Part shown: positions 3,273 through 44,766 of the stretch, in pieces | Layout of the letters: each line of letters begins with the position of its first letter | Numbering within the stretch: the stretch's first letter is position 1 | Source: a bacterium | Lineage (GTDB): Bacteria; JAMCPX01 | Direction of reading: 5' to 3' | DNA: 64,000 nucleotides | NCBI GenBank assembly: GCA_021792615.1 | Contig: JAJYUJ010000011.1 | Location: forward strand, 2,179 to 66,178 | Made by a program: the position numbers and the translations under genes | Notes under the pieces: model-generated | Seen by the model: only the letters and a program-made list of their open reading frames with translations | Told to the model about the DNA's origin: nothing | Database searches by the model: none

Positions 3273-3294
3273 AAATAATAATTCAGGAGGATGT

Positions 3295-4098: not shown

Positions 4099-4109
4099 CC
4101 CGAAAAACG

Positions 4110-6328: not shown

Positions 6329-6329
6329 C

Positions 6330-6950: not shown

Positions 6951-7010
6951 AGTTATCTTCTTTCAATGTAAACTTATTCATCGGTTTGAACGGTTTAAAC
7001 TTCCCATGTC

Positions 7011-7589
7011 TTATAAAACTCCCTTGGTGCTCGGCACGTCCTGGTCCGTAACTTTTACAGCCTGCCTCATCGCCCTGCCTAACCCTTTGAAACAAGACTC
7101 TATGATATGATGTCCATTGTCTCCATACAGCATATTGATGTGCAGGGTAATCCTTGATCTGAATGCAAATGCCTGAAAGAACACCTCGAACAACTCAGAA
7201 TCCATTTCGCCGATCTTTTCCGGGAGCTGAACAGACTTATAAACAAGGAACGGTCTTCCGCTGATATCCACAACCACCTGCGACAGTGCTTCATCCATCG
7301 GGGTTGCTGCGTGACCGAACCTGTGGATACCGGTTTTATCCGAAAGGGCTTTAAAAAAAACTTCGCCGATACTGAGGCCGGCATCTTCAACGGTATGGTG
7401 AAGATCGACATTGACATCACCTGATGCCTTGAGTTTAAGGTCGATCCTTGAAAAGAAGGTAAACAATTCAAGCATGTGATTCAAAAAGCCGATGGGTGTA
7501 TTGATCTCGGCCTTACCCGTACCATCAAGATCGAGTTCTACACTGATGTCTGTTTCTTTTGTCTTTCTTTCGAATTTGGCTTTTCTCAT
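7011..7589 (-). CDS. hisB: Imidazoleglycerol-phosphate dehydratase
   Basis: RKTKETDISVELDLDG, HHTVED and NGHHIIES motifs. Confidence 0.93.
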   Translation of the reverse strand: MRKAKFERKTKETDISVELDLDGTGKAEINTPIGFLNHMLELFTFFSRIDLKLKASGDVNVDLHHTVEDAGLSIGEVFFKALSDKTGIHRFGHAATPMDEALSQVVVDISGRPFLVYKSVQLPEKIGEMDSELFEVFFQAFAFRSRITLHINMLYGDNGHHIIESCFKGLGRAMRQAVKVTDQDVPSTKGVL

Positions 7590-7662
7590 ATCATACCTCC
7601 TTCTTATTTCCGCCTCTCAACCTCTCTCCTCACACCTTTCCCCTGCCCTATCGATCGTCTTC

Positions 7663-8820: not shown

Positions 8821-9515
8821 ATATGTAACCTCATCATGAAAACCCGGACAAAGGCCTCGAGAACGATGTCCTTCGACATCTTTGACTGCCCTGCCCTCCT
8901 GTCTTCGAATATGATGGGCACTTCCTGGATACCGTAGCCTGCTTGTTTAATCCGGTAAGCCATTTCTACCTGAAAACCATACCCGTCCGATTTTATCTGA
9001 TCAAGATCGATCTTCTTCAGGGCCTCTGTGGAATAGCATCTGAAACCCGCTGTAATATCCCGTACCCGCATGCCGAGTATTACCCTTGCATAGAGGTTTC
9101 CGAACTTGCTTATCAACCGTCTCGACGTACCCCAGTTGACGGTCCCTCCTCCATCGACATACCGGGACCCGATCACAAGCCCGTTATTACGTAACTTTTC
9201 CAATAGCCGCGGCAGGTCAGAAGGTTTGTGCGAAAAATCGGCATCCATCTCAAACACGATATCGTATCCATGTTCCATTGCATACCTGAACCCCCGATTA
9301 TAGGCATTGCCCATGCCCATCTTTTTTGGCCTGTGCATGACCTGTACCGTGCTCATGGCTGCTGCAAGCCCGTCTGCTATCTTTCCCGTTCCGTCAGGGG
9401 AGTTATCATCTATGATAAGTATTTCGGCATCCGGGAGACTGGTGATGGTCTCACGCACAATCTTTTCTATATTTTCCGACTCATTGTAGGTCGGTATGAT
9501 GACAAGGCTCCTCAC
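8817..9515 (-). CDS. GT2 polyprenol-phosphate glycosyltransferase (DPM1/Ppm1-like)
   Basis: GTG start. VIIPTYNESENI, IIDDNSPDGT and EMDADFSH (DXD) motifs. 4-bp overlaps with both neighbours. Confidence 0.8.
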   Translation of the reverse strand: MRSLVIIPTYNESENIEKIVRETITSLPDAEILIIDDNSPDGTGKIADGLAAAMSTVQVMHRPKKMGMGNAYNRGFRYAMEHGYDIVFEMDADFSHKPSDLPRLLEKLRNNGLVIGSRYVDGGGTVNWGTSRRLISKFGNLYARVILGMRVRDITAGFRCYSTEALKKIDLDQIKSDGYGFQVEMAYRIKQAGYGIQEVPIIFEDRRAGQSKMSKDIVLEAFVRVFMMRLHI

Positions 9516-10990
9516 GGCCGGATAATCCCTTCAAAATCATAACACTTGTAGATATAAAATGTCCGTGCATAATGCCCGTAACGGTAAATTTTGAGAGGCG
9601 GCAATTCCTCCCATTTCTTGCATTTGAAATGCTTATAGGGATCTATCCTGAAGCTGTTGTCGTTGATATAAACCGCATTCCATCCGTCAAGCGCGGATGT
9701 TACATTATAGCCCCAGTCGTGATAAGAATCGCCTGTTGTATTCGATGTATAAACCTGCGGCTGCCCCGGCGCATTGAAAGCGAGCTGGCTCGAGAGTTGG
9801 TATTTGTGTGTAAAGAGAAACGTCGGCCTGTTTTTTGAAAGTTCTTGATAGGCAGCTTCGACCTCCTTACCTGCGGTATGCCAGCCGTACAGATCGTTGG
9901 TAAGGTCCGTGTCCACAGGTCTGAGAGGTATCAAAGGATAATACAACTGAACATGGATGATTATGGTAAAGAGAAGTGCCAGTGCCCATCCTATCCAGAG
10001 GTATTTTCTGAACCAGTTTTTATTCAACATCCCGTACGATAACTCCACGGACAGGATCACCCCCGGTATATATCCCATCAATGCCCAGTTCGGCTTGGAA
10101 TCAACAATAAAGCTTACAGCAAAAAAGAAGACTATGATGGGGGCTGCGAAAGCGGACAGGAACAGGTACCCTTTGTTTTGAGTCTTCCTCTTAAACCCGT
10201 AGTATATTGCGTAGATAATGAGAAAGAACACAAGTGGAGAAATGAGCCCGACCTGAGAGCCCAGAAATGTAATAAATTTAACTATGCTGATATGGAAATT
10301 CGGGTTACGGGATACCAGCTCAAAGCCGAGTGATTCGAAGTGGTGCTGGATATTCCAGACAATGACGGGCGAAAAGATGAGCAAGGCAATAACTGTTGCG
10401 ATATAAGGCCGTGCATCCTTGAACCATTTCCTGTCCTCTTTCGAAACAATCATAAAAAGCAAGGCAGAAATAGGAATGAAAATGGAGTGGTACTTGCTGA
10501 GCATATCAAGTCCAAGTGCTATGCCAGCAGCGTACCAGTATTGTCCTTTACCATCCAGAAACACCTTCATAAGAAAGTACAGGGTCAATAGCCAGAAGAA
10601 GCCGAGCGGCGCATCCGGGAGCATCATCAGACCGCCTATCGCATAGGCAGGTATGATGTTCAGGGCAAGCACCGAAAGGAAAGCCTTCATTTTGTCTTGC
10701 AGTATTTTACCTGCGATAAGCCAAACCAGAATAGAATCACCTATCGAATACAGGAATGCAGACATTCTGACGGCATAAGCAGTACTGCCAAACAGTTGCA
10801 TCATGAGATAATTCGACCATGCAACGAGAGGAGGATGTTCGTAATAGCTCAGGGACAGGTGGCGTGCATACTGCCAATAATAGGCTTCGTCATCGCTTAA
10901 GTTCAGGGTAAAGATAAACACGAGTCTGATGCAGACGAGCAGTATGATCGTCAATAAAAACAATAAGGTAGCTTTTTTATTTTTATCCAT
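9512..10990 (-). CDS. GT39 / ArnT-PMT family GT-C glycosyltransferase (polytopic membrane protein)
   Basis: N-terminal loop motif DDEAYYWQYARHL...YYEHPPLVAW, followed by many hydrophobic helices. Confidence 0.75.
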   Translation of the reverse strand: MDKNKKATLLFLLTIILLVCIRLVFIFTLNLSDDEAYYWQYARHLSLSYYEHPPLVAWSNYLMMQLFGSTAYAVRMSAFLYSIGDSILVWLIAGKILQDKMKAFLSVLALNIIPAYAIGGLMMLPDAPLGFFWLLTLYFLMKVFLDGKGQYWYAAGIALGLDMLSKYHSIFIPISALLFMIVSKEDRKWFKDARPYIATVIALLIFSPVIVWNIQHHFESLGFELVSRNPNFHISIVKFITFLGSQVGLISPLVFFLIIYAIYYGFKRKTQNKGYLFLSAFAAPIIVFFFAVSFIVDSKPNWALMGYIPGVILSVELSYGMLNKNWFRKYLWIGWALALLFTIIIHVQLYYPLIPLRPVDTDLTNDLYGWHTAGKEVEAAYQELSKNRPTFLFTHKYQLSSQLAFNAPGQPQVYTSNTTGDSYHDWGYNVTSALDGWNAVYINDNSFRIDPYKHFKCKKWEELPPLKIYRYGHYARTFYIYKCYDFEGIIRP

Positions 10991-11056
10991 AATTGATTAT
11001 TATATGCCTTGTTTGAATGATAGGTCAATATAATCGCAAGTACATGAAGACCCTGA

Positions 11057-12700
11057 TTAACGTTTTTGCCTGCTTATGGTACCGATGGACAACGGAGTCA
11101 AAGAGGTATTCCTGTCCCATTTCAGAATAAAAGACATATCCATCCTTGACGTAGGATAGAACGGCAGGGTGTTAATCACGTCGATATCGTATCCCATTCC
11201 CTCAAGTTTTTTGATCTGATTGTTCGTTGTAATAAAGAATGACGGGTTCTGGGTTTTCAAATATTGATCGACTTCTTGTGCAGTATCAACCTTTCTGACG
11301 GGCATCCTGCTGTAATAATTCAGTGTCCCGCGCTCACCATACTGATAAGAAAGTATTACGGATTTCTTGCCTCCTGCGAGTTCCCGTATTTGTTTTCCAA
11401 AGATCTGGAACGGCTGGTATTTTAAGACGGCAGGATACAAATATCCACCGAAGAGCACATCGAACGTTACCATGGAGATTACAGAAAGGACGATGACCTT
11501 TTTAACCTTCTGTATCCCTGTGAATAAAACAATAAGGACAACGAACAGTCCCGCACCAAGCACGAGCCATGGAAGAAGCGTTTCCGGCGGGAAAGATAGT
11601 ATGAACAGGATTGCTAAAAACAGCAGAGGTAAAAATACAATAACATATTGGACGGAGAATATGGTATTCTCATGTTTTGATAACCCCTTATCGAGTTTTT
11701 CATCAAGCCACCGTCCGGTCAGTAGTGCAGCCGGCGGCAGGATCCAGAAGATATACTGCGGCAGCTTGCTGATTGCCAGGGAAAGTATGACAAACGGCAG
11801 AATCCACCACCACAAGGTAAAAACCTCTCCATCATCGGGTCTCGTCTTATTTCTCCAGTTGATAAACCGCTGGACAAGGATGGTAATAAAGAAAAGCGTC
11901 CATGGTAAAAATGCCCAAGCAAAGGTATGAATATAGAATAGGTCATCGCCACCGTAGTTGAATTGTTTTGCATAAAACCTGCCGAAACTCTGCTTGAACA
12001 GCATAAAGTATGCAGAGTAGTCCCCCCTTCTCAAAGCAACCGCTGTATACCACGGGAGGATAAGGGCTGCGGTAAGAAGCAACCCTCTGACAGGTTTCAG
12101 CCTCTTTATCAATGAACTGTCTTTTTTCCAAAAGGCATACGCACCGAAGGCAAGCGCAGGAATACCTATGCTGATGGGACCTTTCGTCAGAAAGGCAAAC
12201 GCCATGACTGCATATCCGGGCCAGAGGTATCTTGGATCGGACAATCCGCGGTAGAGCAAGGCGACGCTCAATGTCATGAAGCCGATAAGCACCATATCGA
12301 TCTTCGGATCCTGGATCATGAGTCTTGATGCAGCAGAAGAGGCCATTATCAATGCCGAAAGCAAGCCTGCTTGTTTGTTCCAGAGCATGGTCCCAAGCCA
12401 GTAAACAGAAAGTATTGCTGCGAGCGCCATCACGAGTGAAGGGATTCTTACGGCGTAATTCTTTATCCCGAATATTTTATAACAAGCCGCTATAAGCCAC
12501 ATGGTTACCGGAGGTTTGTCGAGATATTGCCGATAGTTGTCGTGAAGATATATATAGTCGTGGGATTCGACCATCTCCCGGGAAACCTCTGCGTATGTGG
12601 CCGGATCCACCTCCTGTATATATGCATTGATGCCGGTAAAATAACCGGCCACCAAAAATGCTATCAAAACGATTATCCATGCATAATTGTTTTTTCCCAT
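11057..12700 (-). CDS. Second GT39 / ArnT-like GT-C glycosyltransferase
   Basis: VDPATYAEVSREM...YLDKPPVTMWL first-loop motif and more than 10 hydrophobic helices. Paralogous in architecture to the preceding gene. Confidence 0.72.
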   Translation of the reverse strand: MGKNNYAWIIVLIAFLVAGYFTGINAYIQEVDPATYAEVSREMVESHDYIYLHDNYRQYLDKPPVTMWLIAACYKIFGIKNYAVRIPSLVMALAAILSVYWLGTMLWNKQAGLLSALIMASSAASRLMIQDPKIDMVLIGFMTLSVALLYRGLSDPRYLWPGYAVMAFAFLTKGPISIGIPALAFGAYAFWKKDSSLIKRLKPVRGLLLTAALILPWYTAVALRRGDYSAYFMLFKQSFGRFYAKQFNYGGDDLFYIHTFAWAFLPWTLFFITILVQRFINWRNKTRPDDGEVFTLWWWILPFVILSLAISKLPQYIFWILPPAALLTGRWLDEKLDKGLSKHENTIFSVQYVIVFLPLLFLAILFILSFPPETLLPWLVLGAGLFVVLIVLFTGIQKVKKVIVLSVISMVTFDVLFGGYLYPAVLKYQPFQIFGKQIRELAGGKKSVILSYQYGERGTLNYYSRMPVRKVDTAQEVDQYLKTQNPSFFITTNNQIKKLEGMGYDIDVINTLPFYPTSRMDMSFILKWDRNTSLTPLSIGTISRQKR

Positions 12701-12783: not shown

Positions 12784-14169
12784 CTACACCGTCAGAAGAG
12801 ACTGAAGTGCGGTCTTTAACTCGCCGAGCGTTCTTACCACAAACAGTTCGTCCGTATAATTGCTGTACAGGTTCATCTCGCTATCACCGGTAAACCATGA
12901 ATACCGTTCATCCGGCGTAAACCAGAGTATGTCTTTTACCCTTTTCTTCAGCAATTCGAGTTCTTCGTCACCGGGATACTGATAATTTGTCCTGCCGTCG
13001 CCGATGATGAGCAATCGTGTTTTTGAAGTGAGTAAGCCAAGATACCTGCCGGTAAACTGCCGGAACACATTGCCGTAATCGGTGTATGTTCTTGCCTCGC
13101 GGTAATCCGAGAATATCCTGTCTACAAGTTCATCCGCCGGTTTTGTTCTGACAAGCTGGGTAACGTCTTCGATACCGGACACGAATACAAAGACTTTCAG
13201 CTTTTTGAATGTATCCTTGACAACCGATATGAATTGCATAAAAAACCGTGCGTAATTACGCATCGAACCCGATATATCGCACAGCACTATCAGAGGAGAC
13301 TCCAGTTTTTTGATCTTGCCGTAGCCAAGCTGGATAAGCATATCCCTGCCGGCATTGAGCCTGAAGGTCTGCCGTATCGAAATATCCTTCGTAGTAATAC
13401 CGTACTGTCTCCTTTTGATATCGTCCCGGAGATGAAGGGCCATGCGCCTGATTATCTGATTGATTGTTTCAATATCTTTTTTCGATAAAAAAGACAGCGG
13501 TATGTTCCATAATTCCTTTTCTCCGGACTTCGGCTCATTGCCGTGAAGCAACGCCGTCACTCCGGTAACCTTCGAAGCATGGAGGATAAACTCGGATATA
13601 TTCCGCCGAATAAAGGTCAGCATATTTTCTATGGCTGATGTGATACCGGCAATGTCTTCCGGACACCACCCCGCAAGTTCGAGCGCCTTGCCGAGGACAA
13701 CGAGTTCCTTCTCGGGCCTGTCGAGCTCAAGTGCTTCGGCAAGAAGCATGTAACCCGAGTTCTCCATCCTCTCCTGATAACGGTCATGAAGTTCCAGATA
13801 GAGCTCCTGCAGGCGTTTATAAAATAGTTCGGGATGAGCAACCCAATCCAATATTTTTGCAATGGTCGGTGCGGATTCCCGAAGGATTAACGGATCGATA
13901 TGCTTTATTCCCATAGAATCACCGAAGTGTTCCCAATCCTCAGAGGTATTGAGGAGGAAATCGATGATCTGAAGGAGCAGGAGATGCTGCTCTTTATTTC
14001 TCGCCATGATGGGAACAATGATCCTCTTCAGGGTCTCATAGGTTTTTGGTTTTGCCTGTTCGATGCTATAGACGGTTTGTGCAAATTCAACAGGCGACAC
14101 CGGCATGCCGAGTCCCGAGAGAAAATTGTAAATCTTTGTGGTAAACTTTATTGATTCTTTGACTTCCAT
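12784..14169 (-). CDS. VWA domain protein, CoxE-like, with ~250-aa unassigned N-terminal region
   Basis: C-terminal VWA with MIDAS motif LCDISGSM and LLIIGDGRTN. Start overlaps the stop of the MoxR ATPase gene by 22 nt. Confidence 0.75.
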   Translation of the reverse strand: MEVKESIKFTTKIYNFLSGLGMPVSPVEFAQTVYSIEQAKPKTYETLKRIIVPIMARNKEQHLLLLQIIDFLLNTSEDWEHFGDSMGIKHIDPLILRESAPTIAKILDWVAHPELFYKRLQELYLELHDRYQERMENSGYMLLAEALELDRPEKELVVLGKALELAGWCPEDIAGITSAIENMLTFIRRNISEFILHASKVTGVTALLHGNEPKSGEKELWNIPLSFLSKKDIETINQIIRRMALHLRDDIKRRQYGITTKDISIRQTFRLNAGRDMLIQLGYGKIKKLESPLIVLCDISGSMRNYARFFMQFISVVKDTFKKLKVFVFVSGIEDVTQLVRTKPADELVDRIFSDYREARTYTDYGNVFRQFTGRYLGLLTSKTRLLIIGDGRTNYQYPGDEELELLKKRVKDILWFTPDERYSWFTGDSEMNLYSNYTDELFVVRTLGELKTALQSLLTV

Positions 14170-15068
14170 AACGCGTTGAATGCCTTCTTTTGATCCGCGC
14201 TGTCCTTGAGCAGGCTGCCGAGCGAAGAGAGAGACACCTCACTCTTTCCCAGACCCGCCGAAGCCATGGATACAGACCAGTCGATGATCTCGGAAAGGCT
14301 GGGCGGCCTCTTTAAATCCTGTGCGTTGATGAGAGAGAGCATGCCGTTAATCGTACCGAGAAAGTCCTCAGGCACGATTCCCTGAAGCTTCGCCTTTATT
14401 ATCTCCATCTGCCTCGCACTGTCCGGCATATTCATGTAAAGGTATATACACCTGCGTCTGAGTTCGTCGGAAAGTTCCCGTGCGTTGTTGCTCGTCAGAA
14501 GAACGAAGGGGATGGACTTCGCTTTTATGGTTCCTATCTCGGGAATAGTGATCTGATAATCGCTCAGCACTTCGAGCAAAAGTGCCTCGAACGACGGTTC
14601 GGACTTATCGACCTCGTCGATGAGAAGGACAACGGGGTCCGGTGACGATATTGCCCGGAGCAACGGGCGCTTGATCAGGAATTCTTCCGAAAAAAAAGTG
14701 CTGTTGAACTTTTTCAATTTATCCATCGCAGGGGAAAGCCCCGTGGTACCTTTTAAGATGTCGTCGATTTTGTCTTTCAGAAGCTGGGCATAGAGGAGCT
14801 GCTTCGAATATTCCCACTCATAGATTGCCTTCGTATCATCGATGCCTTCGTAACACTGAAGCCGAATCAGTTCGAGATCGAGCGACTTCGCAATGGCCTT
14901 TGCAAGCTCTGTTTTTCCGACGCCAGGCTGCCCTTCCACAAGCAATGGCTTTGATAGCAGGGATGCAATATAGACCGCGGTCGATATGTCCTCGCTGGAT
15001 ATGTAACCAGCTTTGCGCAGGAGGTCTGTAATCTCTTCCTGTGATTTAAACTGCTTTATCTTTTTCAT
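14148..15068 (-). CDS. MoxR/CoxD-like AAA+ ATPase
   Basis: Walker A GQPGVGKTELAK and Walker B VLLIDEVDK. Paired with the downstream VWA gene. Confidence 0.85.
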   Translation of the reverse strand: MKKIKQFKSQEEITDLLRKAGYISSEDISTAVYIASLLSKPLLVEGQPGVGKTELAKAIAKSLDLELIRLQCYEGIDDTKAIYEWEYSKQLLYAQLLKDKIDDILKGTTGLSPAMDKLKKFNSTFFSEEFLIKRPLLRAISSPDPVVLLIDEVDKSEPSFEALLLEVLSDYQITIPEIGTIKAKSIPFVLLTSNNARELSDELRRRCIYLYMNMPDSARQMEIIKAKLQGIVPEDFLGTINGMLSLINAQDLKRPPSLSEIIDWSVSMASAGLGKSEVSLSSLGSLLKDSADQKKAFNALWKSKNQ

Positions 15069-15758: not shown

Positions 15759-16835
15759 TTAATGATGCGAAATTATAATTCTGCTTATATCGTTGTAAAA
15801 AACAAATACGGTCAGCAGGATTATAAACAATACGCCGAGCTGTAATATAGCGACCTTGAGTTTCTTGTTGATAGGTTTTCTTATAGCAGCCTCAATGAGT
15901 GTAAACAGTACATTACCGCCATCCAGAACGGGAATAGGCAGAATATTGAGTACGGCAAAATTGATGCTGATAAGTGCCATGAAATACATGAGCGCTTCGA
16001 TGCCCCTTTTCGCCTGATGCGCAGCCTGCTGTGCTATCAGTATGGGCCCCCCGAGGTCTTTCGTAGGTATTTTTCCCTCGACGAGTTTAACCAGGGATAG
16101 TGCAACAAGGTACGATATACTCACGGATTCCTTTCCTGCGAGTGACACCGCTGCAACGGGATTGCTCTTTTTTACCTCATAATCACCCGCGGGCATGATT
16201 CCGATAATGGGGGTTTTTACCGGCTCGCCGAAAATATCCTTTTCTGTTTCCATTCTGGGTTTCACGTTCACCGTGAATTGCTTATTATCGCGCAGAATGG
16301 TAAGGACCATATTTTTATCGGCATTCCCAACGATGATCTTCTTCATCGAATCCCACTCGTTTACCTTTACGCCGTTGATCTGTACTATCGTATCTCCTTT
16401 TTGAATGCCCGCGGAATACGCAGGACTTCCCTGCTTAACTTCGCCTATCGTCGTCGTCATGTAGGGCACTCCGTGCATAAATACAATCCACAGCAGAAAT
16501 ACGGCAAATATCCAGTTTGAGAGTGGCCCGGCAACAAGAATCAGCAATTTTTTCCAATTTGCCTGAGTTGCATAGCTCCTTGCCTGGTCTTCCGGTGGAA
16601 TGGGGTCCTCCGTTTCATCGAGGTTCTCTCCCACCATTTTGACATATCCTCCCAGCGGGAGTACCGACAGACGGTACTCTGTTTCACCGAATTTCTTTTT
16701 GAGGATGGCAGGACCAAACCCGAGAGAAAATATCAGGACCTTGACCTTGAACAATTTTGCAAACGTAAAATGTCCAAGTTCATGCACAAATATAAGAATC
16801 GATATGACAACTACAGCGGAAATTACAGCTACCAC
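15759..16835 (-). CDS. rseP: RIP zinc metalloprotease RseP (M50, single PDZ)
   Basis: HELGHF motif, a PDZ segment (GSPAYSAGIQKGDTIV) and NILPIPVLDGG motif. Downstream of dxr. Confidence 0.88.
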   Translation of the reverse strand: MVAVISAVVVISILIFVHELGHFTFAKLFKVKVLIFSLGFGPAILKKKFGETEYRLSVLPLGGYVKMVGENLDETEDPIPPEDQARSYATQANWKKLLILVAGPLSNWIFAVFLLWIVFMHGVPYMTTTIGEVKQGSPAYSAGIQKGDTIVQINGVKVNEWDSMKKIIVGNADKNMVLTILRDNKQFTVNVKPRMETEKDIFGEPVKTPIIGIMPAGDYEVKKSNPVAAVSLAGKESVSISYLVALSLVKLVEGKIPTKDLGGPILIAQQAAHQAKRGIEALMYFMALISINFAVLNILPIPVLDGGNVLFTLIEAAIRKPINKKLKVAILQLGVLFIILLTVFVFYNDISRIIISHH

Positions 16836-17977
16836 AGTTTTTGTATCCTTTCATCAACGTATTTTTTTACCTCTCTGTCTATGACCATGATTTCATACAC
16901 AGAGCTGACAGGTTTATAATAATATCTATTGAGGGTATATTCAACAACATCTGCGATGTCCGTGAACGCGATCCTGTTCTCGAGAAATGCCTCAACCGCA
17001 CGATCATTTGCCGCATTCATGACAATCGCCGAATCATCTCCCTGCTTTAGAACGTCCATGGCAATTTTCAAACACTTGAATTTTTTCAAATCGGGCAGGA
17101 TAAAATTGAGGACCTTTATTTTTTTGAAATCGAGCTTTTTCATGCCGAGGTTAATTCTTTTTCTCGTATTCATGGCATACGCAATGGGAAGCCTCATGTC
17201 CGGAACCCCCATCTGTGCAAGAACTGCGCCATCCGCCAATTCTATCATGGAGTGTATGATACTCTCCGGATGGATGATGACATCGATCTGTCCGGGGTTG
17301 AGGTTGAACAGCCATCTCGCCTCTATCATCTCAAGACCCTTGTTCATCATTGTTGCCGAATCGATCGTTATTTTTTTCCCCATCTTCCATTTTGGATGCT
17401 TCAGTGCCTGCCGGGGGGTTATTGACTTCAAGTCCTTGATGTTTGTCCTTAAAAAAGGACCGCCGGAAGCCGTCAGGAGTATCTTTCTCAGCTCATCATA
17501 AGCAACACCGTGTAATAACTGATAAATTGCGCTGTGCTCGCTGTCTACCGGGATAAGCAAATCGTCGCTGCCCTTCATTTCCTTGATCTTTCTCCCTCCG
17601 GCAACCATAACCTCCTTGCTTGCAAGCGCTACCTTCTTCTTTTCTTTGAGAGCGAGATAGGTGGGCATAAGCGCATCAAGCCCGAGTATCGCCATGATGA
17701 TGAGGTCGACGCCCTCGAGCATGGCAAGGATATTCAGTCCTTCCTGACCCCAGAAAAACTTCGTCTTCGGGAATTCTTTCTTTAACATGACCGCTTCTTT
17801 CTCATCTATAACTGATGCATAGCGCGGTGAGAAAGAACGTATCTGTTTTTTGAAAAGATCTATGTTGCGGCCGGCGGCAAGAGCTTCAACACGAAACAGA
17901 TCCGGATATTTTTTTACGATGGAAAGTGTCGTTTTGCCGATACTTCCCGTTGATCCGAACAGAGCTATATTATTCAT
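16829..17977 (-). CDS. dxr: 1-deoxy-D-xylulose 5-phosphate reductoisomerase
   Basis: LFGSTGSIGKTTL NADPH loop, LASKE, PVDSEHSAI and HPESIIHSM motifs. Confidence 0.93.
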   Translation of the reverse strand: MNNIALFGSTGSIGKTTLSIVKKYPDLFRVEALAAGRNIDLFKKQIRSFSPRYASVIDEKEAVMLKKEFPKTKFFWGQEGLNILAMLEGVDLIIMAILGLDALMPTYLALKEKKKVALASKEVMVAGGRKIKEMKGSDDLLIPVDSEHSAIYQLLHGVAYDELRKILLTASGGPFLRTNIKDLKSITPRQALKHPKWKMGKKITIDSATMMNKGLEMIEARWLFNLNPGQIDVIIHPESIIHSMIELADGAVLAQMGVPDMRLPIAYAMNTRKRINLGMKKLDFKKIKVLNFILPDLKKFKCLKIAMDVLKQGDDSAIVMNAANDRAVEAFLENRIAFTDIADVVEYTLNRYYYKPVSSVYEIMVIDREVKKYVDERIQKLW

Positions 17978-19822: not shown

Positions 19823-20423
19823 GGTACCTCCCTATCAACAATATTTCTTCTCCTATCTTCCGTCTTCCGTAAGAACAGAGATCTGCAGGAACAGGATTTC
19901 TTTGACTTATTGCAAAATATCCGTTCTGTCAATACTCCATCCGTTGAACGGGCGCACTCCCGTACCGGCAGAGCGGGACCGGGACGAACGGTACAATCGC
20001 CAGAGCTCATACCGTCATAGAATTTGCTCCGTTTGCAGTATGATTCTGCAACTAAATACTCCCCGGTGTTGCCATTTATGGTCAAGGCTATTTAATACAA
20101 CAAAGGAACTTGCGTTCGCATAAGAAAGGTTATGTCAACTCATACATTTCATATCCTATGGAATCGATTTAGAAAGTCGTTTTTCCGGGATGGATTAATT
20201 CTTACCATCCAGGAAGCTTGTGCATGGTCGCGAGGAACTGTCCATATGTATGGAAACATCCAAGGGGATCCAAACATATTGACAATCTTGGTTTGGTATG
20301 ATGTCATAAGCCTAATACGAAAAGCGAAGCTAACTCCATTCACCTCCGGAAGCAGATTTATTTAGATTATTGAAACCCGGCAAAGGGTTTATAAATATAT
20401 AAACATACATACAGGAGGTTTTT

Positions 20424-21263
20424 ATGAAAAGCTTCACCCAGAAGCGACATAGTGGGAAAATATTGTGTTTCGTCAGTCTCTTCTTGATTCCTATATCGAT
20501 ACTATTCTTCAGTATTCATGCAACTGCAGACGAAGGTCAAAATAACTGTAATGGATGGAAATCTGGCTGGCAACAGAACTATTGCAGTGACATCAATGTA
20601 GATACTGCCAGAGATGAATTATTATCTTCAAAGCCATTTTTAAAACTGTATGCCGCACATGAGATATTACGGGCACCTGTATGTTACGGTATTGGTCTGA
20701 GTCAGCTTGCGGAAGATATTGTGGCAAAGTACGCAGATATAGGATCGATTCCTTTTCTTTTAAGGATACTCAAACCGAACGATGATCATCAGTGCGGCTC
20801 GGGACTTGATATAAACTTACGGGCAATGGCCGCTCTTTCGATTGGTAAAATTGTAAACCAACACATAGGGGATAAATATAGAGAAGATGAGAGCACGCGC
20901 CATGATGTTGTGGATACACTTATTGATACGCTGGGCAATGGTTATGATTTAAGGATACGAATGGCCTCAGCACAAGCACTTGGAGATGCACGAGATGATG
21001 AAGCAATACCTGTATTACAGACCATCGTTTCAAACCCCAATGAAAATCCAACATTACAATTCGTAGCCATGCAGTCTCTTGCAACTCTTCAATCGGTTGC
21101 AATTAACAAAGGCTGCTCGCGACAATCGGGACAGACAAATGCGGATCCGGCGATCAATGGTTCTGCAATTGGGGACCCTCCCCCCGATATTGCCCAATCG
21201 GCACAAAACTATCTTTTACTCAACTTTGCTCCTGCATATTATAGATTATCACCACAACCATAA
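20424..21263 (+). CDS. Exported HEAT/PBS-lyase-like repeat protein
   Basis: AGGAGG at 20413-20418. Signal peptide (...FFSIHATADEG). HEAT-like repeats, e.g. LRAMAALSIGKIV and RIRMASAQALGDARDDEAIPVLQTIV. Confidence 0.7.
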   Translation: MKSFTQKRHSGKILCFVSLFLIPISILFFSIHATADEGQNNCNGWKSGWQQNYCSDINVDTARDELLSSKPFLKLYAAHEILRAPVCYGIGLSQLAEDIVAKYADIGSIPFLLRILKPNDDHQCGSGLDINLRAMAALSIGKIVNQHIGDKYREDESTRHDVVDTLIDTLGNGYDLRIRMASAQALGDARDDEAIPVLQTIVSNPNENPTLQFVAMQSLATLQSVAINKGCSRQSGQTNADPAINGSAIGDPPPDIAQSAQNYLLLNFAPAYYRLSPQP

Positions 21264-21278
21264 ATAATAGGAGGAAGT

Positions 21279-24200
21279 ATGAATATATGGAAACTACGGC
21301 ATTATATCCCTGTAGTTCTTATTTTAGCATTTTTTATCGGGGTGGATGCATGCAGTAATGGTGCATCTTGGTCGGCCACTACATTTTCATGCACTCTTCC
21401 GCCACCTGCAAATTATCCGCCTCTTTCAGAGTATATTAACAGTATTCATATTGCCAATCAAAACAGTGTTTCTGTCCCAGGGCCGATCCTCGAATATGGT
21501 GTACCGTATGAGCTTATGATAAAATTCAGTGTGCCGATAGCCGGATTTCCTATAACCGTGCTCACTATGATTCCTGCCGGTACCTGTACAGGGGAACCGA
21601 ACATTATAACAGCAGGGCCTCCCTCGATTTCTACGGATGGTTTGACCATAGCGATACCAATAACAACCCCTGCATCTCAATCCGGAGTAAGCGGATCCGG
21701 ATGCCCCTCTTATCCGTATGGCTATCAAATAAACATATGCGGCGCCGGCTCTTCGGAATGCTTAGGTTTTTTCAGTATAACTACAGTCAACGCTATCAGT
21801 TATCAGGGTACGAATACGCATGTACTTGCCGGTGGATTTTCATTCAATGTCTGGCTGAACAACCTTGACAATGATTTTCCCTATATCATGAGTTTTCTAC
21901 CGGGATATCCGGCCCCTATTGACAGCTATCCCCCGCCCGTGCCTGCCTCTGGATATTTCCCTCCCCATTCGCCGATAAATGTGGTGTTCAGTGAAGTAAT
22001 GATGGGGGGGACAAGCATGCCTATCTCTATGCTGTATAGTAGAAACAATGCTTCAGAAGGCGATGTGTTTACACCATCCGAGTTACCGGAGATAAGTTTT
22101 ACCCGTACTGACACAAGTAACAATCAGACCGTTCTTATATCAAACGGATTACTCGAACCTGCAAGCGAATATATGTTTACCTTTTTATCGGCAGGCAACA
22201 TCGATTTATATCATAATCTGTATGGAAATCAGGATTCTTCAGGGATGCCGCTGTTTCCTTATGTGAATACCGTTAATTGTGCGCAGGGTGATAAGACTTG
22301 TATAGAAAATGCTTATTGGACTGCTATTGAAAATGGCATTCCCAATGACCTTCGAGCTTTCAATACAAGCCTTGTAGGGATTGAAGGTCCCTCCTACCCC
22401 GCATTCAGCGGTTTCAATTACAGAGATGCAATATATGTCACTCCGACATCACTCTCGCTCAATGTTACCGGAAGCACAGGATCTGGAGTAAGTGCGGTGC
22501 TGTTTACTGCAGAATCTTATTTAAATGGCTCTATAACTCCCTTGGGCTCTACTAGTGTAACGAACAATCAATATTCTGCGAGTGTGCCTTTTACTGGTCT
22601 TACGGATGGTCCCTATTATTTTGTGGCACAGGAGACCACAGATAACAGTTATGATTTAATACCAGTAGTTAAAGATACAGTTCCTCCGTCAGCTCCTGGA
22701 AGTGTAATAATCTCACCAACGGACATGAGCATTGATAATATGCAAGACTTGAATTCTGTTTGTGCAACGGCGAATACATGGAATATAGGAGAGGCGCAGT
22801 TGTATATAGTGGATCCTAATAATCAGAGTACTTACATAACATCGGTAACCCTGCCCGCTAATATGACGAGTTCACAGGGATATCAATTTTGTTTCAGCAA
22901 TATCGGTATTAATCCTACAGTTACCGATATAGGGCAGAACGAGGCCGGCTATTCAGTAAATATTCCGGCGGCAGGTATTTATACTGTAGAAATAAGATTT
23001 GTTGATTTCGGAGGTCTGGAAAGCGCTGCGGGAATAGCACAACTGAAAATACATCCTGAGATAAACTACGTTATAAATGGTAACGCAGCTCCGGGATCGT
23101 CATACGACGGCTGCCCGGGACAGATATTTACTGTTTATGGGGATGGATTCAATTTAACCAATACCACGGTTTTTGTTAATGGCATAGCATGGCCTACTAC
23201 GCCCTATATAGTCTCTACAAACTGGAGCATATTATATGGACAACCAGTCCCAACTTCTATAGCTTTATCAACAGCCATGCCGTCAAACGCGATATCCGGG
23301 TATATAACGGTCGCAACCAACGGTGTAGCAAGCGTCCCGGGCACATCACCTTTAACTAATACTAAAGTAATTGTGCCGTGGGCAATAGATAAGTATGTTG
23401 ATACAGGGTATACGCCTGTAGGTATATCGATAGTGCTCGGTCAATTTGATTATCCAAGAATTGCGTCTACAGATGGAAATAATTTGTATTATTATTTTTG
23501 GAATGGAACACAATGGATTACGAATGCTGTCAAAGTAGATTATGTAACTCCCTTTACTGATGTGACGGATTTGTCTCAAAGTATGAGTAGTAAAATTTCA
23601 CTTGCACTTGATCAATCAGGCAATCCAGACATAGCCTATGCGAAACTATTTAAATTGCCTAATGGTCAACCCGCCATAGGTCTTTACTTCGCCTATGGAA
23701 CAAAAAAGATATTGGGTAGCCTTATATACTATTCATTTAACCAACAATTAATTGATACATTAGCTACTTGTACATATCAATCAACAATTAATAATATTAA
23801 ACAATATAGTTGTGATAATGAATGGCTTAGTGGTAATTATTCTATTTCGATTGTTTACAATACCAGTACGGGGAATCCGGTCATTTCTTATCGTGGATTG
23901 TGGAGTGCAACACCTGCTATAATTTCCACGGAAATCTCTTCTTCCGGTAACATGATAAAATCAGAAGTAGCACCAATTAATAGCACTGGTGGTTTTTATA
24001 GTGATATGAAACAAGATGAATCTGGGGATCTTGGCATTATATTTAACACCTCATTTGTTCCAGTACCACTTTTTAACAACAATATGGAAGGTGGAGTGGA
24101 ATATGCACAACAACCACCGAACCTTAACTGGATAACAAGTTGGGTAGATTCTCTTACGTATCTTGCAGCACCATATAGCTTAACATTTGCCAATAATACA

Positions 24201-25919
24201 GCTATGGCAAGTACCTGCGTACCTAATAGCGGTATCGTTGTTTGGAATAATTCGAGCAACAATGTATGGTCGGATTATATTGTTGATGGTATAGCCTGCC
24301 CATACAACCTGCCTATTATAACTTCTCTGGGGTATGACCAAAACAATGGCGAGCTTGATGTTAGTTACTATGATTCCACTAAACATATATTAAAAATGGC
24401 AACAGGAAGTTATAAGACTTGGTTACCTAACATAGCTGATATAGGTATAAATGCAGGCACAGTAAATTCCGTTGCAATTGATAGCAACGGCAAGGCGGAT
24501 ATTGCATATAGTGATAATAACAACGGCAGATTACTTTTCTTTCAAGAAGCAAACGGGAACTTTATTTCTACCAACCCAAATTATGTTAACAGTCCGACAT
24601 CGTGTGATGTGAACAAATTCAGTAAAATTAGCATTCCAACAACGACTATAGATTCATTTGCAAATAGTATTATATCGAATCCTTTAATAACTTTACCATT
24701 CCCACTTAATCTATTTTCTCTCAATCAAAATAATTTTACTATGTTTCTTTTAGGTGCTCTGGATAGAAATGATACCCTAACAATTGATCAGAATAACAAT
24801 ACATCATCTTATACATTGACATTGTCCAATTCTGCCGGTCAAAATATAGGTGATGGCGAGACACTCGATATTACCGTAGACTTGAATGCATTACAAAATA
24901 ACATCTTAAACATCAGTACAAATTTTATGGATGTCGATGATACATTATTTTCCAGTGTCCCACATAATATGTTGATGGTTGCTTCAACTACTACGGGATT
25001 AACTATTGAATATACTGTTGATGGGCTTAATTATGGAACCATAGCTATTGGGAATGGGAGTTATTTAGGGTCTATTTATGGCCTTTCAAAGACCTGTCCG
25101 TCGGGAAGCACAGCGATAGGATTCGGGGCATGTGATATTAGTAAAATATCATTACAAAGTTTTCTAACTTCATTTTTTCCTATAGGAATGGGTAACACTT
25201 TAGAATTAGCTATAGTTACTCAAGGTATAAATGTTACGAAGACCTCCGTAGAACAATATTTTTCTAACAATACAAATATGTTCACGAGTCTGTTAGGAAG
25301 CTTACAGCAAATTAATGGATATATTCCACAACTTGTAAATCTTATTAATCAGAATGGCAATGGTTATGTAGCGTCTCATGCATATATTACTTTAAGTGGC
25401 GTACAGCATAGCATAACAGGCGACGGCTCATCTGAAGGTGTTATGAATCTGACAGTACCTATATATGCAGAGGTATGGGGAATCTATCATGGGTACGGCA
25501 TAAGAGCTACTTGTCCCGGTACCATAAATTTACCTCTATCACCCAATCCATATACAAGCAGTAAAGTGACATCGGTAACTGCGAGTGATATTACCAGTAC
25601 GGGGATTGATATGTTTGGACAAAATCCATACAGTTCTCCTTTTAGTTATAACTGCTCCCTTCATTATACAGGGACTCTAACTCAAGCAGATGAATATCTT
25701 CTTACCCATTTATTCGATGTGTCTGTATCTCTGAATGGTTCAACAACTACTGTCGGGAATTACATTAGTCATTTACTCAACTCAAATATATTATCTCAGG
25801 ATCTCACTAATGATATAGTAACTGCTACGCCGCTCAGTGTTTCTTTGACCACACCACAGTTTATTGATTCTTTGATCTTATCTACCAATAACTTAGATGT
25901 GTATATGGAGAGTAAGTGA
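21279..25919 (+). CDS. 1546-aa exported multidomain protein (Ig-like + IPT/TIG-like + six propeller-like blades + unassigned C-terminal ~470 aa)
   Basis: AGGAGG at 21269-21274. Signal/lipobox-like N-terminus (FFIGVDACSNG). GCPGQIFTVYGDGFNLTNTTVFVNG (IPT-like). Repeated ...G(N/K/E)xD(I/V)(A/S)Y... blades. N/T/S/Y-rich. AT-rich coding sequence with no long shadow ORFs. Confidence 0.8.
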   Translation: MNIWKLRHYIPVVLILAFFIGVDACSNGASWSATTFSCTLPPPANYPPLSEYINSIHIANQNSVSVPGPILEYGVPYELMIKFSVPIAGFPITVLTMIPAGTCTGEPNIITAGPPSISTDGLTIAIPITTPASQSGVSGSGCPSYPYGYQINICGAGSSECLGFFSITTVNAISYQGTNTHVLAGGFSFNVWLNNLDNDFPYIMSFLPGYPAPIDSYPPPVPASGYFPPHSPINVVFSEVMMGGTSMPISMLYSRNNASEGDVFTPSELPEISFTRTDTSNNQTVLISNGLLEPASEYMFTFLSAGNIDLYHNLYGNQDSSGMPLFPYVNTVNCAQGDKTCIENAYWTAIENGIPNDLRAFNTSLVGIEGPSYPAFSGFNYRDAIYVTPTSLSLNVTGSTGSGVSAVLFTAESYLNGSITPLGSTSVTNNQYSASVPFTGLTDGPYYFVAQETTDNSYDLIPVVKDTVPPSAPGSVIISPTDMSIDNMQDLNSVCATANTWNIGEAQLYIVDPNNQSTYITSVTLPANMTSSQGYQFCFSNIGINPTVTDIGQNEAGYSVNIPAAGIYTVEIRFVDFGGLESAAGIAQLKIHPEINYVINGNAAPGSSYDGCPGQIFTVYGDGFNLTNTTVFVNGIAWPTTPYIVSTNWSILYGQPVPTSIALSTAMPSNAISGYITVATNGVASVPGTSPLTNTKVIVPWAIDKYVDTGYTPVGISIVLGQFDYPRIASTDGNNLYYYFWNGTQWITNAVKVDYVTPFTDVTDLSQSMSSKISLALDQSGNPDIAYAKLFKLPNGQPAIGLYFAYGTKKILGSLIYYSFNQQLIDTLATCTYQSTINNIKQYSCDNEWLSGNYSISIVYNTSTGNPVISYRGLWSATPAIISTEISSSGNMIKSEVAPINSTGGFYSDMKQDESGDLGIIFNTSFVPVPLFNNNMEGGVEYAQQPPNLNWITSWVDSLTYLAAPYSLTFANNTAMASTCVPNSGIVVWNNSSNNVWSDYIVDGIACPYNLPIITSLGYDQNNGELDVSYYDSTKHILKMATGSYKTWLPNIADIGINAGTVNSVAIDSNGKADIAYSDNNNGRLLFFQEANGNFISTNPNYVNSPTSCDVNKFSKISIPTTTIDSFANSIISNPLITLPFPLNLFSLNQNNFTMFLLGALDRNDTLTIDQNNNTSSYTLTLSNSAGQNIGDGETLDITVDLNALQNNILNISTNFMDVDDTLFSSVPHNMLMVASTTTGLTIEYTVDGLNYGTIAIGNGSYLGSIYGLSKTCPSGSTAIGFGACDISKISLQSFLTSFFPIGMGNTLELAIVTQGINVTKTSVEQYFSNNTNMFTSLLGSLQQINGYIPQLVNLINQNGNGYVASHAYITLSGVQHSITGDGSSEGVMNLTVPIYAEVWGIYHGYGIRATCPGTINLPLSPNPYTSSKVTSVTASDITSTGIDMFGQNPYSSPFSYNCSLHYTGTLTQADEYLLTHLFDVSVSLNGSTTTVGNYISHLLNSNILSQDLTNDIVTATPLSVSLTTPQFIDSLILSTNNLDVYMESK

Positions 25920-25920
25920 T

Positions 25921-26931
25921 ATGAAAAGATGCACAGTAATATTCTGCAAACTATGTTTATCTACAATATTGTTAGGTTTTATTTTGGTAAATTGTGGTCA
26001 ATCACCTCATCACGGCCCCGTATCCCATACATATCAAGTTGGTGTTGCTCCTTGGGGAATAGCAATAGACAGTGCCGGGAATGTCTGGGTTGCTAATGGC
26101 ACTAACAATGTTACTGAGCTCAGTTCTTTCGGTGCAACCATAAAGGCTTATAATGTTGGTACAGGTCCTAGAGGGATAGCAGTAGATAGTGCTGGAAATG
26201 TTTGGGTAAGCAACTACGCAGATGGAACCGTTTCGGAAATAAACTTTTCTGCTTGCCCACCTTATACACCTTATAGTTGTACACTTGCCACCTATACTTA
26301 TTCTGTAGGTTCTTACCCATCAGGCATTGCTATAGATTCATCAGATAACGTATGGGTATCTAATTTTACTACTGTAACAGAAATAAGCTCTTCAGGTATA
26401 ACCATAGGTACCTATCCGGACAATATCAACGGAGGATTTGGTAGTGGTATAGCAATAGACGCATCTGGCAATGTATGGGTAGCCAATGGAAATATTACAG
26501 AATTAAGCCCCACAGGTACAACTTTAAACACTTATCAGATTGAGGCGAATGCTGTAGCAATAGATACCTCGGGGAACGTGTGGGTAGTTAATGGTAATTA
26601 TTATAATCATATCGTCAGTCAACTAAATCTTAATAAAGGTGTAATTAAGACTATCGGTGTATATTCTGTAGGAAGCAATCCTCAGAGCATAGCAATCGAT
26701 GCATCCGGCAATGTCTGGGTTACTAATAGAGGGGACGATACTGTAACCGAGTTAAGTCCTGTAGGTAAAACTATTAATACTTATTCAGTAGGCGTTAAAC
26801 CTCAAGGTATAGCTATAGATACAGTGGGTAACGTATGGGTGGCCAATGAAGGTGATATGACTGTAACAGAATTCCCTGGTATAACTAAAGGTCCTCAGTT
26901 CTTTCCATACGCGGGCCCGCAATGGCCATGA
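25921..26931 (+). CDS. NHL-repeat / Vgb-lyase-like 7-bladed beta-propeller lipoprotein
   Basis: Start moved to ATG 25921, 1 nt after the upstream TGA. Lipobox LVNCG. Seven copies of GIAID(S/A/T)xGNVWV(A/S/T/V)N...TE(L/I)S. Confidence 0.82.
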   Translation: MKRCTVIFCKLCLSTILLGFILVNCGQSPHHGPVSHTYQVGVAPWGIAIDSAGNVWVANGTNNVTELSSFGATIKAYNVGTGPRGIAVDSAGNVWVSNYADGTVSEINFSACPPYTPYSCTLATYTYSVGSYPSGIAIDSSDNVWVSNFTTVTEISSSGITIGTYPDNINGGFGSGIAIDASGNVWVANGNITELSPTGTTLNTYQIEANAVAIDTSGNVWVVNGNYYNHIVSQLNLNKGVIKTIGVYSVGSNPQSIAIDASGNVWVTNRGDDTVTELSPVGKTINTYSVGVKPQGIAIDTVGNVWVANEGDMTVTEFPGITKGPQFFPYAGPQWP

Positions 26932-26956
26932 GGAAACCATAGGGGGTTAACGATAG

Positions 26957-27160
26957 ATGAATAATTATTTATACTTTACAAAAAGTCTTGTTATAAGTTT
27001 AACAATATTGGGCATACTGGGGTCATTTGGTGGAGAGGTAATCTACCATAATCTGACTTCCACAAAATACTCATTAAGCCCGGGAGTTTCGTCTACTCTT
27101 TCTTTTGCTGAGAATGGGAGCTCGACTTCTATAAATTTTGCATTCCTATACCATTTTTGA
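26957..27160 (+). CDS. Possible small membrane protein (67 aa)
   Basis: Weak RBS (AGGGGG about 10 nt upstream) and one hydrophobic helix (LVISLTILGILGSFGG). Nothing else supports it. Confidence 0.25.
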   Translation: MNNYLYFTKSLVISLTILGILGSFGGEVIYHNLTSTKYSLSPGVSSTLSFAENGSSTSINFAFLYHF

Positions 27161-27392
27161 TTTGAAATAAATTGTCCATGAATCCTCGAAGCCGGTCGGC
27201 AACCACCTGTCCAAAAAACGTCCGTTTTTGGTACGCTCTTTTATTATTTTGTTTTCAGAGGGAAGCCCCTACCCTATTTTTGGCACCCCTTTTTTGGACA
27301 CCTAAATATTGCGATAAAAAGTGGGAGATTACCGGTGCCGGTCACTGTATAGCTCAGAATCTGCGTGAATATCCTTGGTGCTAAAGGAACAC

Positions 27393-27418
27393 CAAAAAAA
27401 AGAGGGCATACCGCCCTC
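27393..27418 (-). terminator. Rho-independent terminator overlapping the radC-remnant stop
   Basis: GAGGGC-ATACC-GCCCTC hairpin (27402-27418), followed on the minus strand by a T8 run (27394-27401). Confidence 0.6.
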
Positions 27419-27644
27419 ATAACTCATGCAAATCCGCAAAGCTGGCATACCTGCCATGCCCTATAATGATATGATCCACAAGGTTAATTCCTACCAGCTC
27501 GCACACCTGTTTGATGTTTCTTGTTCCTGCCTTGTCTTCTGCCGATGGATCTACTTCTCCTGACAGATGAGGTTGAATCGAAAACAGTTCGATTGCGCTG
27601 TTGCTGCTCCCACCATCCCCAAGGTCGTCTGATATGATTGTCAT
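27417..27644 (-). pseudogene. Truncated RadC-like JAB-domain remnant (C-terminal ~60 residues only)
   Basis: Ends ...INLVDHIIIGHGRYASFADLHEL like RadC C-termini. The expected HNHPSG metal site reads IQPHLSGE. The whole N-terminal portion is absent. Confidence 0.6.
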
Positions 27645-44578: not shown

Positions 44579-44606
44579 AATTTTTGTTTCCCGTTTCCTT
44601 TTAGTT

Positions 44607-44746: not shown

Positions 44747-44766
44747 ACGTTTAAAAAACGCGGTAT

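Follow-up and report, generated by a model that had tools for sequence, protein, structure and literature searches.

In the 64,000-nucleotide stretch of contig JAJYUJ010000011.1 analyzed here (assembly GCA_021792615.1; hereafter, the window), a locus on the forward strand encodes an exported HEAT-repeat protein (gene 1, HEAT), a giant protein (gene 2, the giant) and an NHL-repeat lipoprotein (gene 3, NHL). The locus is a copy of a real, conserved and previously undescribed cassette, the parts of which resemble known kinds, while their combination, two orphan domains and the shuffling of three modules are new. The copy in the window is referred to as W and the copies on other contigs as L001 to L003 and L012 to L017; "stalk" denotes residues 26-700 of the giant, and "head" its propeller together with its C-terminal domain (C-domain). 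The features of W are the following.

20261 to 20423, forward strand: conserved upstream region, from blastn and sequence reading
20424 to 21263, forward strand: gene 1, exported HEAT-repeat protein, 279 amino acids
21279 to 25919, forward strand: gene 2, the giant, 1546 amino acids
21279 to 21353, forward strand: signal peptide of the giant with lipobox-like motif, Cys25 encoded at 21351-21353
21354 to 23378, forward strand: putative stalk of the giant, residues 26-700, beta-rich, rich in Pro, Ser, Thr and Asn and nearly devoid of Lys and Arg
23234 to 23527, forward strand: junction block 1, residues ~652-750, with ..GYITVATNGVASVPGTSP..NTKVIVPWAIDKYVDTGYTP.., where the 5' and 3' modules cross over
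23379 to 24578, forward strand: propeller of the giant, residues ~701-1100, motif xSxAxDxxGxPxIAYxD...L
24468 to 24608, forward strand: junction block 2, residues ~1064-1110, the last blade plus FISTNPNYVNSPTSCD, between propeller and C-domain
24576 to 25919, forward strand: C-domain of the giant, residues ~1100-1546, ending in a conserved LSTNGLDVYM motif
25921 to 26931, forward strand: gene 3, NHL lipoprotein, 336 amino acids; the longest open reading frame (ORF) starts at 25897
26868 to 27160, forward strand: junction to a lost fourth gene, comprising the end of the first NHL gene (NHL1), a spacer and codons 1-24 of a second one (NHL2)
27252 to 27340, forward strand: non-coding right-end sequence in common with L001, likely the right edge of the transferred unit

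The three co-directional ORFs, their ribosome-binding sites and their spacers lie exactly where a first-pass annotation of the window had placed them. AGGAGG precedes gene 1 at 20413-20418 and gene 2 at 21269-21274, and the intergenic spacers measure 15 nt (genes 1 and 2) and 1 nt (genes 2 and 3). For gene 3, the start at 25921 is favoured over that at 25897 because of the N-termini of its homologues and a GGAGAG located 9 nt 5' of the ATG. Upstream of gene 1, TTGACA (20279-20284) and TGTCAT (20302-20307), separated by 17 nt, make up a promoter-like site by consensus match only, which recurs in other copies, and a ATATTGACAA box is common to the upstream regions of W, L001, L012 and L015. The genes form one promoter-proximal operon. 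That they are real genes follows from the 4.6-kb ORF, which is not expected by chance in DNA of 40% GC, and from homologues with dN well below dS. Between W and L001, dN was 0.03-0.07 and dS 0.19-0.68 in the 5' half, and within allelic types an omega of ~0.05-0.35 indicates purifying selection. A leader of ~115 nt (20306-20423) separates the promoter-like site from the start codon of gene 1. It is mostly conserved among W, L001 and L016 and includes a small hairpin, AAACCCGGCAAAGGGTTT; an Rfam scan of the window matched no family except two tRNAs.

We found a giant homologue directly behind the HEAT gene in all nine contigs in which this could be read (W, L001, L002, L003 and L012 to L016), and an NHL lipoprotein gene behind the giant in all five readable cases (W, L001, L002, L003 and L017). 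The first-pass annotation had allowed for the case that the three genes never co-occur elsewhere; they do, and constitute a conserved unit. This unit is rare. Among 5.8 billion clustered proteins, the giant has four homologues and the HEAT protein seven, and the family comprises about ten loci, one member of which comes from hydrothermal sediment of the Southwest Indian Ridge (PMC6946796). The cassette is absent from 185,579 species-representative genomes (GTDB), including eight relatives with PolA 66-96% identical, all of them metagenome-assembled genomes (MAGs), with the caveat that MAGs are incomplete, and no further copies were found in JGI metagenome contigs, IMG/VR, plasmids or phages. 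In the short metagenome contigs of L013 (943-2434), L014 (1292-3159) and L015 (1238-4063), the giant gene is broken up into two successive ORFs, which may reflect frameshifts, assembly errors or decaying copies.

No further gene is conserved beside the cassette, and its flanks differ in every locus. It had been remarked that no enzyme, transporter or regulator accompanies the three genes. None is indeed conserved next to them, but the words "no enzyme" are uncertain for the products themselves, since NHL/SGL and BNR_4 propellers include lyases and lactonases. Nor could the genes be matched to any named system, in agreement with the first reading: Pfam, NCBIfam, PADLOC, PHROGs and PDB gave nothing for the giant, and in the literature we found no described system of a HEAT protein, a giant and an NHL protein. 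By PADLOC, the cassette does not belong to a known defence system; the only match was at blade level, between the NHL protein and PD-T4-6 (2.7e-8, 70 residues), with nothing for the giant.

Export signals are present on all three products, as had been noted. That of gene 1 is a cleavable signal peptide (..HATA/DEG). The HEAT/PBS-lyase-like repeats described for this protein are borne out by Pfam HEAT_2 (33.4 bits against a cut-off of 27.7, 5.6e-8) and by a match of its profile to alphaRep/PBS-HEAT structures in the PDB (1.5e-13), which covers profile positions 144-206 only. Canonical PBS-type HEAT repeats number only ~2-3 and lie at residues ~130-220. In an alignment of nine HEAT homologues, the sequence of the signal peptide drifts while the mature part is conserved, with Cys54 and Cys87 invariant and a strongly conserved C-terminal tail, DPPxDIxxAAQNYLLLNFAPAY, the core residues of which are invariant. 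With PBS-lyase-type HEAT proteins (CpcE/NblB, MTH187, alphaRep), gene 1 thus has in common its two to three canonical repeats of the type RIRxASAQALGDxRDxxAIPxL. However, it differs from them in its signal peptide and conserved cysteines, which mark it as exported, in having no lyase partner, and in its unique conserved C-terminal tail. It is not a CpcE/F phycobilin lyase either, as it scored 14.8 bits with NF058502 against a cut-off of 330 and carries a signal peptide.

For the giant, the first-pass annotation had proposed cleavage by signal peptidase I at ...VDA/C. This is contradicted by the eight N-termini examined, all of which have a Cys directly after the hydrophobic segment (VDAC, ADAC, AGSC, ANSC); the lipobox had been overlooked. 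The conserved Cys suggests that the giant is a lipoprotein, like gene 3. As would be expected of bacterial lipoproteins, a Cys after the hydrophobic region is kept in all giant and NHL homologues examined. The giant contains very little Lys, Arg and Glu but much Asn, Ser and Thr (K+R 2.4%, N+S+T 30%), a composition typical of extracellular proteins. It had no Pfam or NCBIfam match at E<=0.1; at E<=10, the members of the giant family gave only noise in Pfam (e.g. DUF2510 and YLR146W-A), and profiles of the whole giant, its N-terminal part and its C-domain found nothing among PDB sequences.

The putative stalk is the best-conserved part of the giant family, with a mean column identity of 84%. 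A chimeric profile of the N-terminal 355 and the C-terminal ~450 residues, searched against 5.8e9 proteins, retrieved only family fragments. AlphaFold2 models of the two halves of the giant, built on four-sequence alignments, had predicted local distance difference test (pLDDT) values of 32.6 and 35.1 and are both unusable as folds; DSSP assigned mostly strands to the stalk half (pLDDT 32.6). The "S-layer-type Ig-like" and "IPT/TIG-like" stretches of the first-pass annotation did not hold up beyond a resemblance of motifs, as no Big_5, TIG or other Ig-type profile matched at E<=10.

A protein of this kind could be a structural component of an S-layer or sheath, together with its anchoring partners. 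Its size, its low charge, its richness in Asn, Ser and Thr and the Big_5-like motif PxxxxIxVxFSExM noted earlier would fit such a role. However, no Big_5, SLH or S-layer family matched at E<=10, the giant is probably lipid-anchored, and it is truncated or split in several copies. Moreover, the cassette is accessory, being absent from all species-representative genomes including those of close relatives, and its codon usage is atypical for the host. We therefore consider an S-layer role extremely improbable.

A HMMER profile of giant residues 380-1546 was searched against 1.84e9 representative proteins (E<=1e-3). All 4197 matches were made through propeller blades (profile positions ~570-755), with 4-18 matching stretches per protein; since the list was saturated by blade matches, weak matches to the C-domain could be hidden in it. 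Weak matches to Pfam BNR_4 were found in 6 of the 10 relatives sampled, and others carry PKD, BACON, CARDB, FlgD_ig or Por_Secre_tail (the tail of type IX secretion, T9SS). In their source entries, the relatives are named "BNR repeat-containing", "CFI-box-CTERM" or "fibronectin type III" proteins and come from Syntrophales and Methanomassiliicoccales, among others. The propeller of the giant is a member of a very large propeller family of surface proteins, with a distant relationship to BNR_4. Foldseek with the better half-model, which is of low confidence, returned only generic propellers (TM<0.31). The first-pass annotation had counted six propeller-like blades; the propeller stands, but by eye there appear to be ~7 blades. 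The giant itself is not a member of BNR_4/PL25, as it has no PF15892 match at E<=10 and only its distant relatives do. Its likeness to this family consists in its propeller falling in a repeat family whose members weakly match BNR_4, and the difference is that these relatives, which come from anaerobic bacteria and archaea, are surface proteins with several domains rather than characterised lyases.

Behind the propeller, the C-domain is the most variable part of the giant (mean column identity 49% in an alignment of seven sequences) and is predicted to be mixed alpha/beta. Here, too, profile searches came back blank, as the first-pass annotation had anticipated in finding no recognisable motif in the C-terminal ~470 residues: there was no PDB match and, in any member, no meaningful Pfam match at E<=10, and in the representative search the domain was matched only by the family fragments P0018, P0025 and P0053. 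We take the C-terminal ~450 residues to be probably a family-specific orphan domain. In L016 (1447-4923 of ERZ27236914 k141_296236), an allele of the giant 90% identical to W ends at residue 1158, exactly at the border of propeller and C-domain, and is followed by unrelated sequence; this is either a natural truncation without C-domain or a chimeric contig end.

Gene 3 had been described as a seven-bladed NHL lipoprotein, and each element of this description was recovered. Pfam NHL matched with 79 bits against a cut-off of 20 (1.3e-22), seven in-register blade repeats are visible at the DNA level, and Cys25 (encoded at 25993-25995) corresponds to a Cys that homologues keep after their signal peptide. 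Among solved structures, gene 3 matched Pizza6 (2e-25), PknD (1rwi, 1.1e-18) and, far more weakly, Vgb lyase (2z2n, 8e-6). The designed Pizza propellers derive from the PknD sensor propeller. Gene 3 resembles the sensor domain of M. tuberculosis PknD and Pizza (1rwi, 3ww9) in its highly symmetric NHL blades, its extracytoplasmic location and its best structure matches, but has seven blades instead of six and is a free-standing lipoprotein rather than the sensor of a Ser/Thr kinase; its paralogues in other cassettes, moreover, add an FN3 domain.

These matches bear on the question of whether the propellers are enzymes. The cassette could serve to process surface polysaccharide, with the BNR_4-like propeller, the NHL/SGL propeller or both acting as lyase, lactonase or glycosidase and with stalk and HEAT protein merely positioning them. 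All products are exported, gene 3 passes Pfam Vgb_lyase (60.3 bits against a cut-off of 50) and matches SGL at 2.8e-17, and relatives of the giant propeller match BNR_4, a domain of PL25 ulvan lyases (PMC13193363). Yet the giant has no BNR_4 match even at E<=10, and gene 3 matches the non-enzymatic PknD and Pizza (1e-18 to 2e-25) much better than Vgb lyase, reaching only 26 bits with NCBIfam Vgb(A) against a cut-off of 600. In addition, none of the loci has a linked transporter, regulator or gene for sugar utilisation, and the allelic shuffling of old, divergent heads described below would be unusual for a catabolic enzyme. Overall, the NHL lipoproteins appear to resemble the PknD sensor more than any enzyme, and we regard the processing of polysaccharide as unlikely.

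The cassette was not always limited to three genes. Directly behind gene 3, W 26868-27018 is 91% identical at the nucleotide level to L003 6852-7002, after which homology ends. In this segment begins an ORF (26957-27160) that is a 67-residue remnant of NHL2, the first 24 residues of which are 75% identical to the NHL2 signal peptide of L003. As an intact second NHL lipoprotein gene (FN3 plus NHL) is present in L002 and L003, and its signal-peptide stub in W, the ancestral cassette had four genes. The three-gene operon of the first-pass annotation is thus correct for the intact genes of W, but not for the original unit, from which W lost the second NHL lipoprotein.

The main new result is a mosaic structure of the alleles, seen by dN/dS in codon windows and by identity in 150-nt windows. 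L003 is 97-99% identical to L002 at the nucleotide level from the HEAT gene to approximately residue 690 of the giant. From approximately residue 720 to the end of the NHL gene, it is 75-97% identical to L001 and only ~50% to L002. This first crossover lies within junction block 1 (23234-23527), and dS is low on both sides. Pairs of alleles are 71-91% identical within the block, while non-cognate pairs fall to ~40-65% farther 3', in the propeller and C-domain. In the pair of W and L001 the pattern is complementary, with a protein identity of 91% in the N-terminal part and 41% in the C-terminal half. Junction block 2 (24468-24608) likewise retains 74-91% nucleotide identity in all pairs, whereas its flanks are at ~40-65% in most. 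A second crossover separates the HEAT gene from the giant: L012 combines a W-type HEAT gene (82%) with an L014-type stalk (95%, compared to 56% to W). Short NHL genes occur with the heads of W, L002 and L017, and FN3-NHL genes with those of L001 and L003, so that NHL type tracks head type.

The cassette is a mosaic of at least three exchangeable modules, namely the HEAT gene, giant residues 1 to ~700, and giant residues ~700 to the end together with the NHL gene or genes. Homologous recombination at the short, conserved junction blocks brings these modules into new combinations, a shuffling of old alleles rather than hypermutation. Neither this recombination nor the foreign composition described below had been part of the first-pass annotation; they were added here from the identity windows and from the GC content at third codon positions (GC3).

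An exchange of this kind recalls polymorphic toxins. A conserved N-terminal part followed by a variable C-terminal part that is swapped together with a downstream gene is the layout of CdiA-CT/CdiI and Rhs loci. By analogy, the variable C-terminal part of the giant could be an effector in competition, against which the co-inherited NHL lipoprotein or lipoproteins protect the producer. The cassette does have a conserved N-terminal and a variable C-terminal part that is swapped with the downstream gene or genes at a conserved junction, and the copy in L001 lies among toxin-antitoxin and AbiE genes. However, the swapped unit of ~850 residues includes the whole propeller and is no short toxin tip, and no toxin, pre-toxin, VENN, Rhs or type V, VI or VII secretion-system (T5SS, T6SS, T7SS) family was detected in the giant or its neighbours. 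The giant would be a Sec-exported lipoprotein without delivery apparatus, the "immunity" genes would encode lipoproteins of 336-440 residues in one or two copies, and L016 is devoid of a C-domain altogether. We hold a role as toxin and immunity system to be quite improbable.

The composition of the cassette sets it apart from its surroundings. GC3 is 0.27-0.38 in the cassette genes compared to 0.44-0.62 in the flanking housekeeping genes, and the same contrast is seen in L001. In W, one flank of the cassette holds an alpha/beta-hydrolase gene together with uppS, dxr and rseP, and the opposite flank ctpA, ftsB, pdxJ and a GGDEF gene; L001 is flanked by HicA, AbiE, ParE and glycogen genes and L002 by a cytochrome c gene. 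The left edge of the DNA in common with other cassettes is at ~20261: W 20261/20264-20500 is 78-79% identical to L016 and L001 in blastn, and an extra 45-nt patch of common DNA is found at 20115-20159. On the right, W 27252-27340 matches L001 16151-16238, directly 3' of the L001 NHL gene, with 87% identity over 90 nt. The shared left start and the shared right end delimit a unit of ~7.1 kb. From its foreign composition and its different chromosomal sites, we conclude that the locus at ~20261-27340 is an accessory, horizontally acquired cassette. As a possible island border, a perfect 14-nt inverted repeat (19632/27182) was rejected, since a native gene contains its left arm and, by our own estimate, ~0.2 such matches are expected by chance.

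Just beyond the shared right end, in the 825 nt that separate the cassette from ctpA, lies a truncated radC. Its ORF (27417-27644, reverse strand, 75 amino acids) encodes the C-terminal JAB/MPN part of RadC and matches phrog_10276, "DNA repair protein", at 1.4e-15; a terminator-like hairpin is located at 27418-27402. The L001 copy is surrounded by genes for HicA, AbiEi/AbiEii (twice) and Phd/ParE (2138-8662 and 16227-17193), an island context of toxin-antitoxin and abortive-infection genes that is absent from the window.

An acquired unit may also be selfish or decaying island cargo without current function in this genome. The deletion of the fourth gene in W, the adjoining radC remnant, the split or truncated giants of L013 to L016 and the foreign codon usage are what such cargo would leave behind. 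Against this stand the three intact genes of W, including the 4.6-kb ORF, the conserved ribosome-binding sites and promoter box, and a dN/dS well below 1 in both modules; in addition, the splits occur in short contigs, for which assembly error is an alternative explanation. Cargo without function is, in our view, very improbable.

The above results lead us to propose, with moderate confidence, that this accessory cassette builds a lipid-anchored, polymorphic complex for binding or recognition at the cell surface, of the kind represented by fibrillar adhesins. The giant would be tethered to the envelope by its N-terminal lipid, with its conserved, beta-rich N-terminal 700 residues as a stalk and the variable propeller and orphan C-domain as a distal ligand-binding head. 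As they are inherited with the head, the NHL lipoproteins would act with it, as co-receptors or assembly partners, and the secreted HEAT protein may hold the giant in the periplasm or act as its adaptor there. A physical assembly of the three products and a scaffold role of the HEAT protein, both supposed in the first-pass annotation, are putative. Old and divergent heads shuffled onto conserved stalks suggest frequency-dependent selection on the ligand of the head, for which surfaces, polysaccharide, other cells and phage are candidates. In line with this proposal, the parts are of a binding type without catalytic family, namely a PknD-like NHL protein and a propeller from a family of multidomain surface proteins.

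Several observations weigh against it. Stalk and head are readings of conservation and composition, not of fold, because both AlphaFold models are unusable, and Pfam detected no Ig-type family in the stalk at E<=10, Big_5 and TIG included. The lipoboxes (VDAC, LVNC, ESC) depart from the consensus [LVI][ASTVI][GAS]C. HEAT does not strictly co-vary with the stalk, and the co-inheritance of head and NHL genes could be mere linkage. The function may not be strongly maintained, as the giant is split in L013 to L015 and truncated in L016 and NHL2 is deleted in W. Finally, NHL/SGL propellers include true enzymes such as Vgb lyase. The same holds for BNR_4 propellers, for example in PL25 ulvan lyase (PMC13193363).

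In a more specific version, the cassette would be a novel system of polymorphic surface recognition or contact-dependent competition, with an exchangeable head, matched propeller lipoproteins as co-receptor or immunity proteins and the HEAT protein as an export or holding factor; we consider this distinctly unlikely. Known surface loci that swap modules include CdiA-CT/CdiI and Rhs, phage tail-fibre tips with their chaperones, and Myxococcus TraA. The cassette is comparable to these in that a conserved proximal part is combined with a distal part that is swapped together with a downstream gene at a conserved junction, and in that divergent types persist. However, it contains no toxin or tail-fibre family and no delivery system, it has no relatives on phage or viral contigs, and its swapped unit is much larger.

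Among known systems, the proposed surface complex is compared with fibrillar adhesins, which combine a stalk of repeated domains with a distal adhesive domain, evolve fast and are hard to annotate (Monzon et al. 2022, PMC9210967). A domain cluster that overlaps BNR_4 was put forward there as a candidate for the adhesive head. Like these proteins, the giant is very large and exported and consists of a beta-rich, elongated N-terminal part of low charge followed by a propeller. There are also differences. Pfam at E<=10 recognises no stalk family in any member, so that only composition and strand content fit; the predicted anchor is an N-terminal lipid instead of LPXTG or a type I or type V secretion system (T1SS, T5SS); and the giant adds an orphan C-domain of 450 residues and is always linked to HEAT and propeller lipoprotein partners.

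Elsewhere in the window, we observed two tandem genes for PMT_2 membrane glycosyltransferases (9512-12700, reverse strand; ArnT-like, of the dolichyl-phosphate-mannose type) and, at 12784-15068 on the reverse strand, a MoxR-type AAA ATPase gene overlapping a VWA CoxE-like gene, an ATPase/VWA chaperone pair that adjoins tsaB and rseP. Two reverse-strand ORFs, of 740 amino acids (44767-46989) and 573 amino acids (60504-62225), had no Pfam match at E<=1e-5 and no NCBIfam match at E<=1e-10; the former overlaps the start of a gene for a TPR protein (43811-44770). Two tandem genes for chemoreceptor-like proteins of ~845 residues (48640-53705, forward strand) gave weak matches to NCBIfam families of the methyl-accepting chemotaxis protein (MCP) type in their C-terminal parts only.

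The cassette has no bearing on a long-standing open question, and its hosts are uncultured bacteria of sediments and hydrothermal sites. Two of its domains, of ~355 and ~450 residues, are without detectable relatives in 5.8 billion sequences or the PDB, and gene 1 would encode a HEAT-repeat protein that is, unusually, exported and devoted to a single partner. If our interpretation is true, the family shows in compact, self-contained form how a bacterial surface lipoprotein can evolve as a modular stalk with exchangeable heads, with clean crossover points and with accessory proteins that are passed on together with the head.

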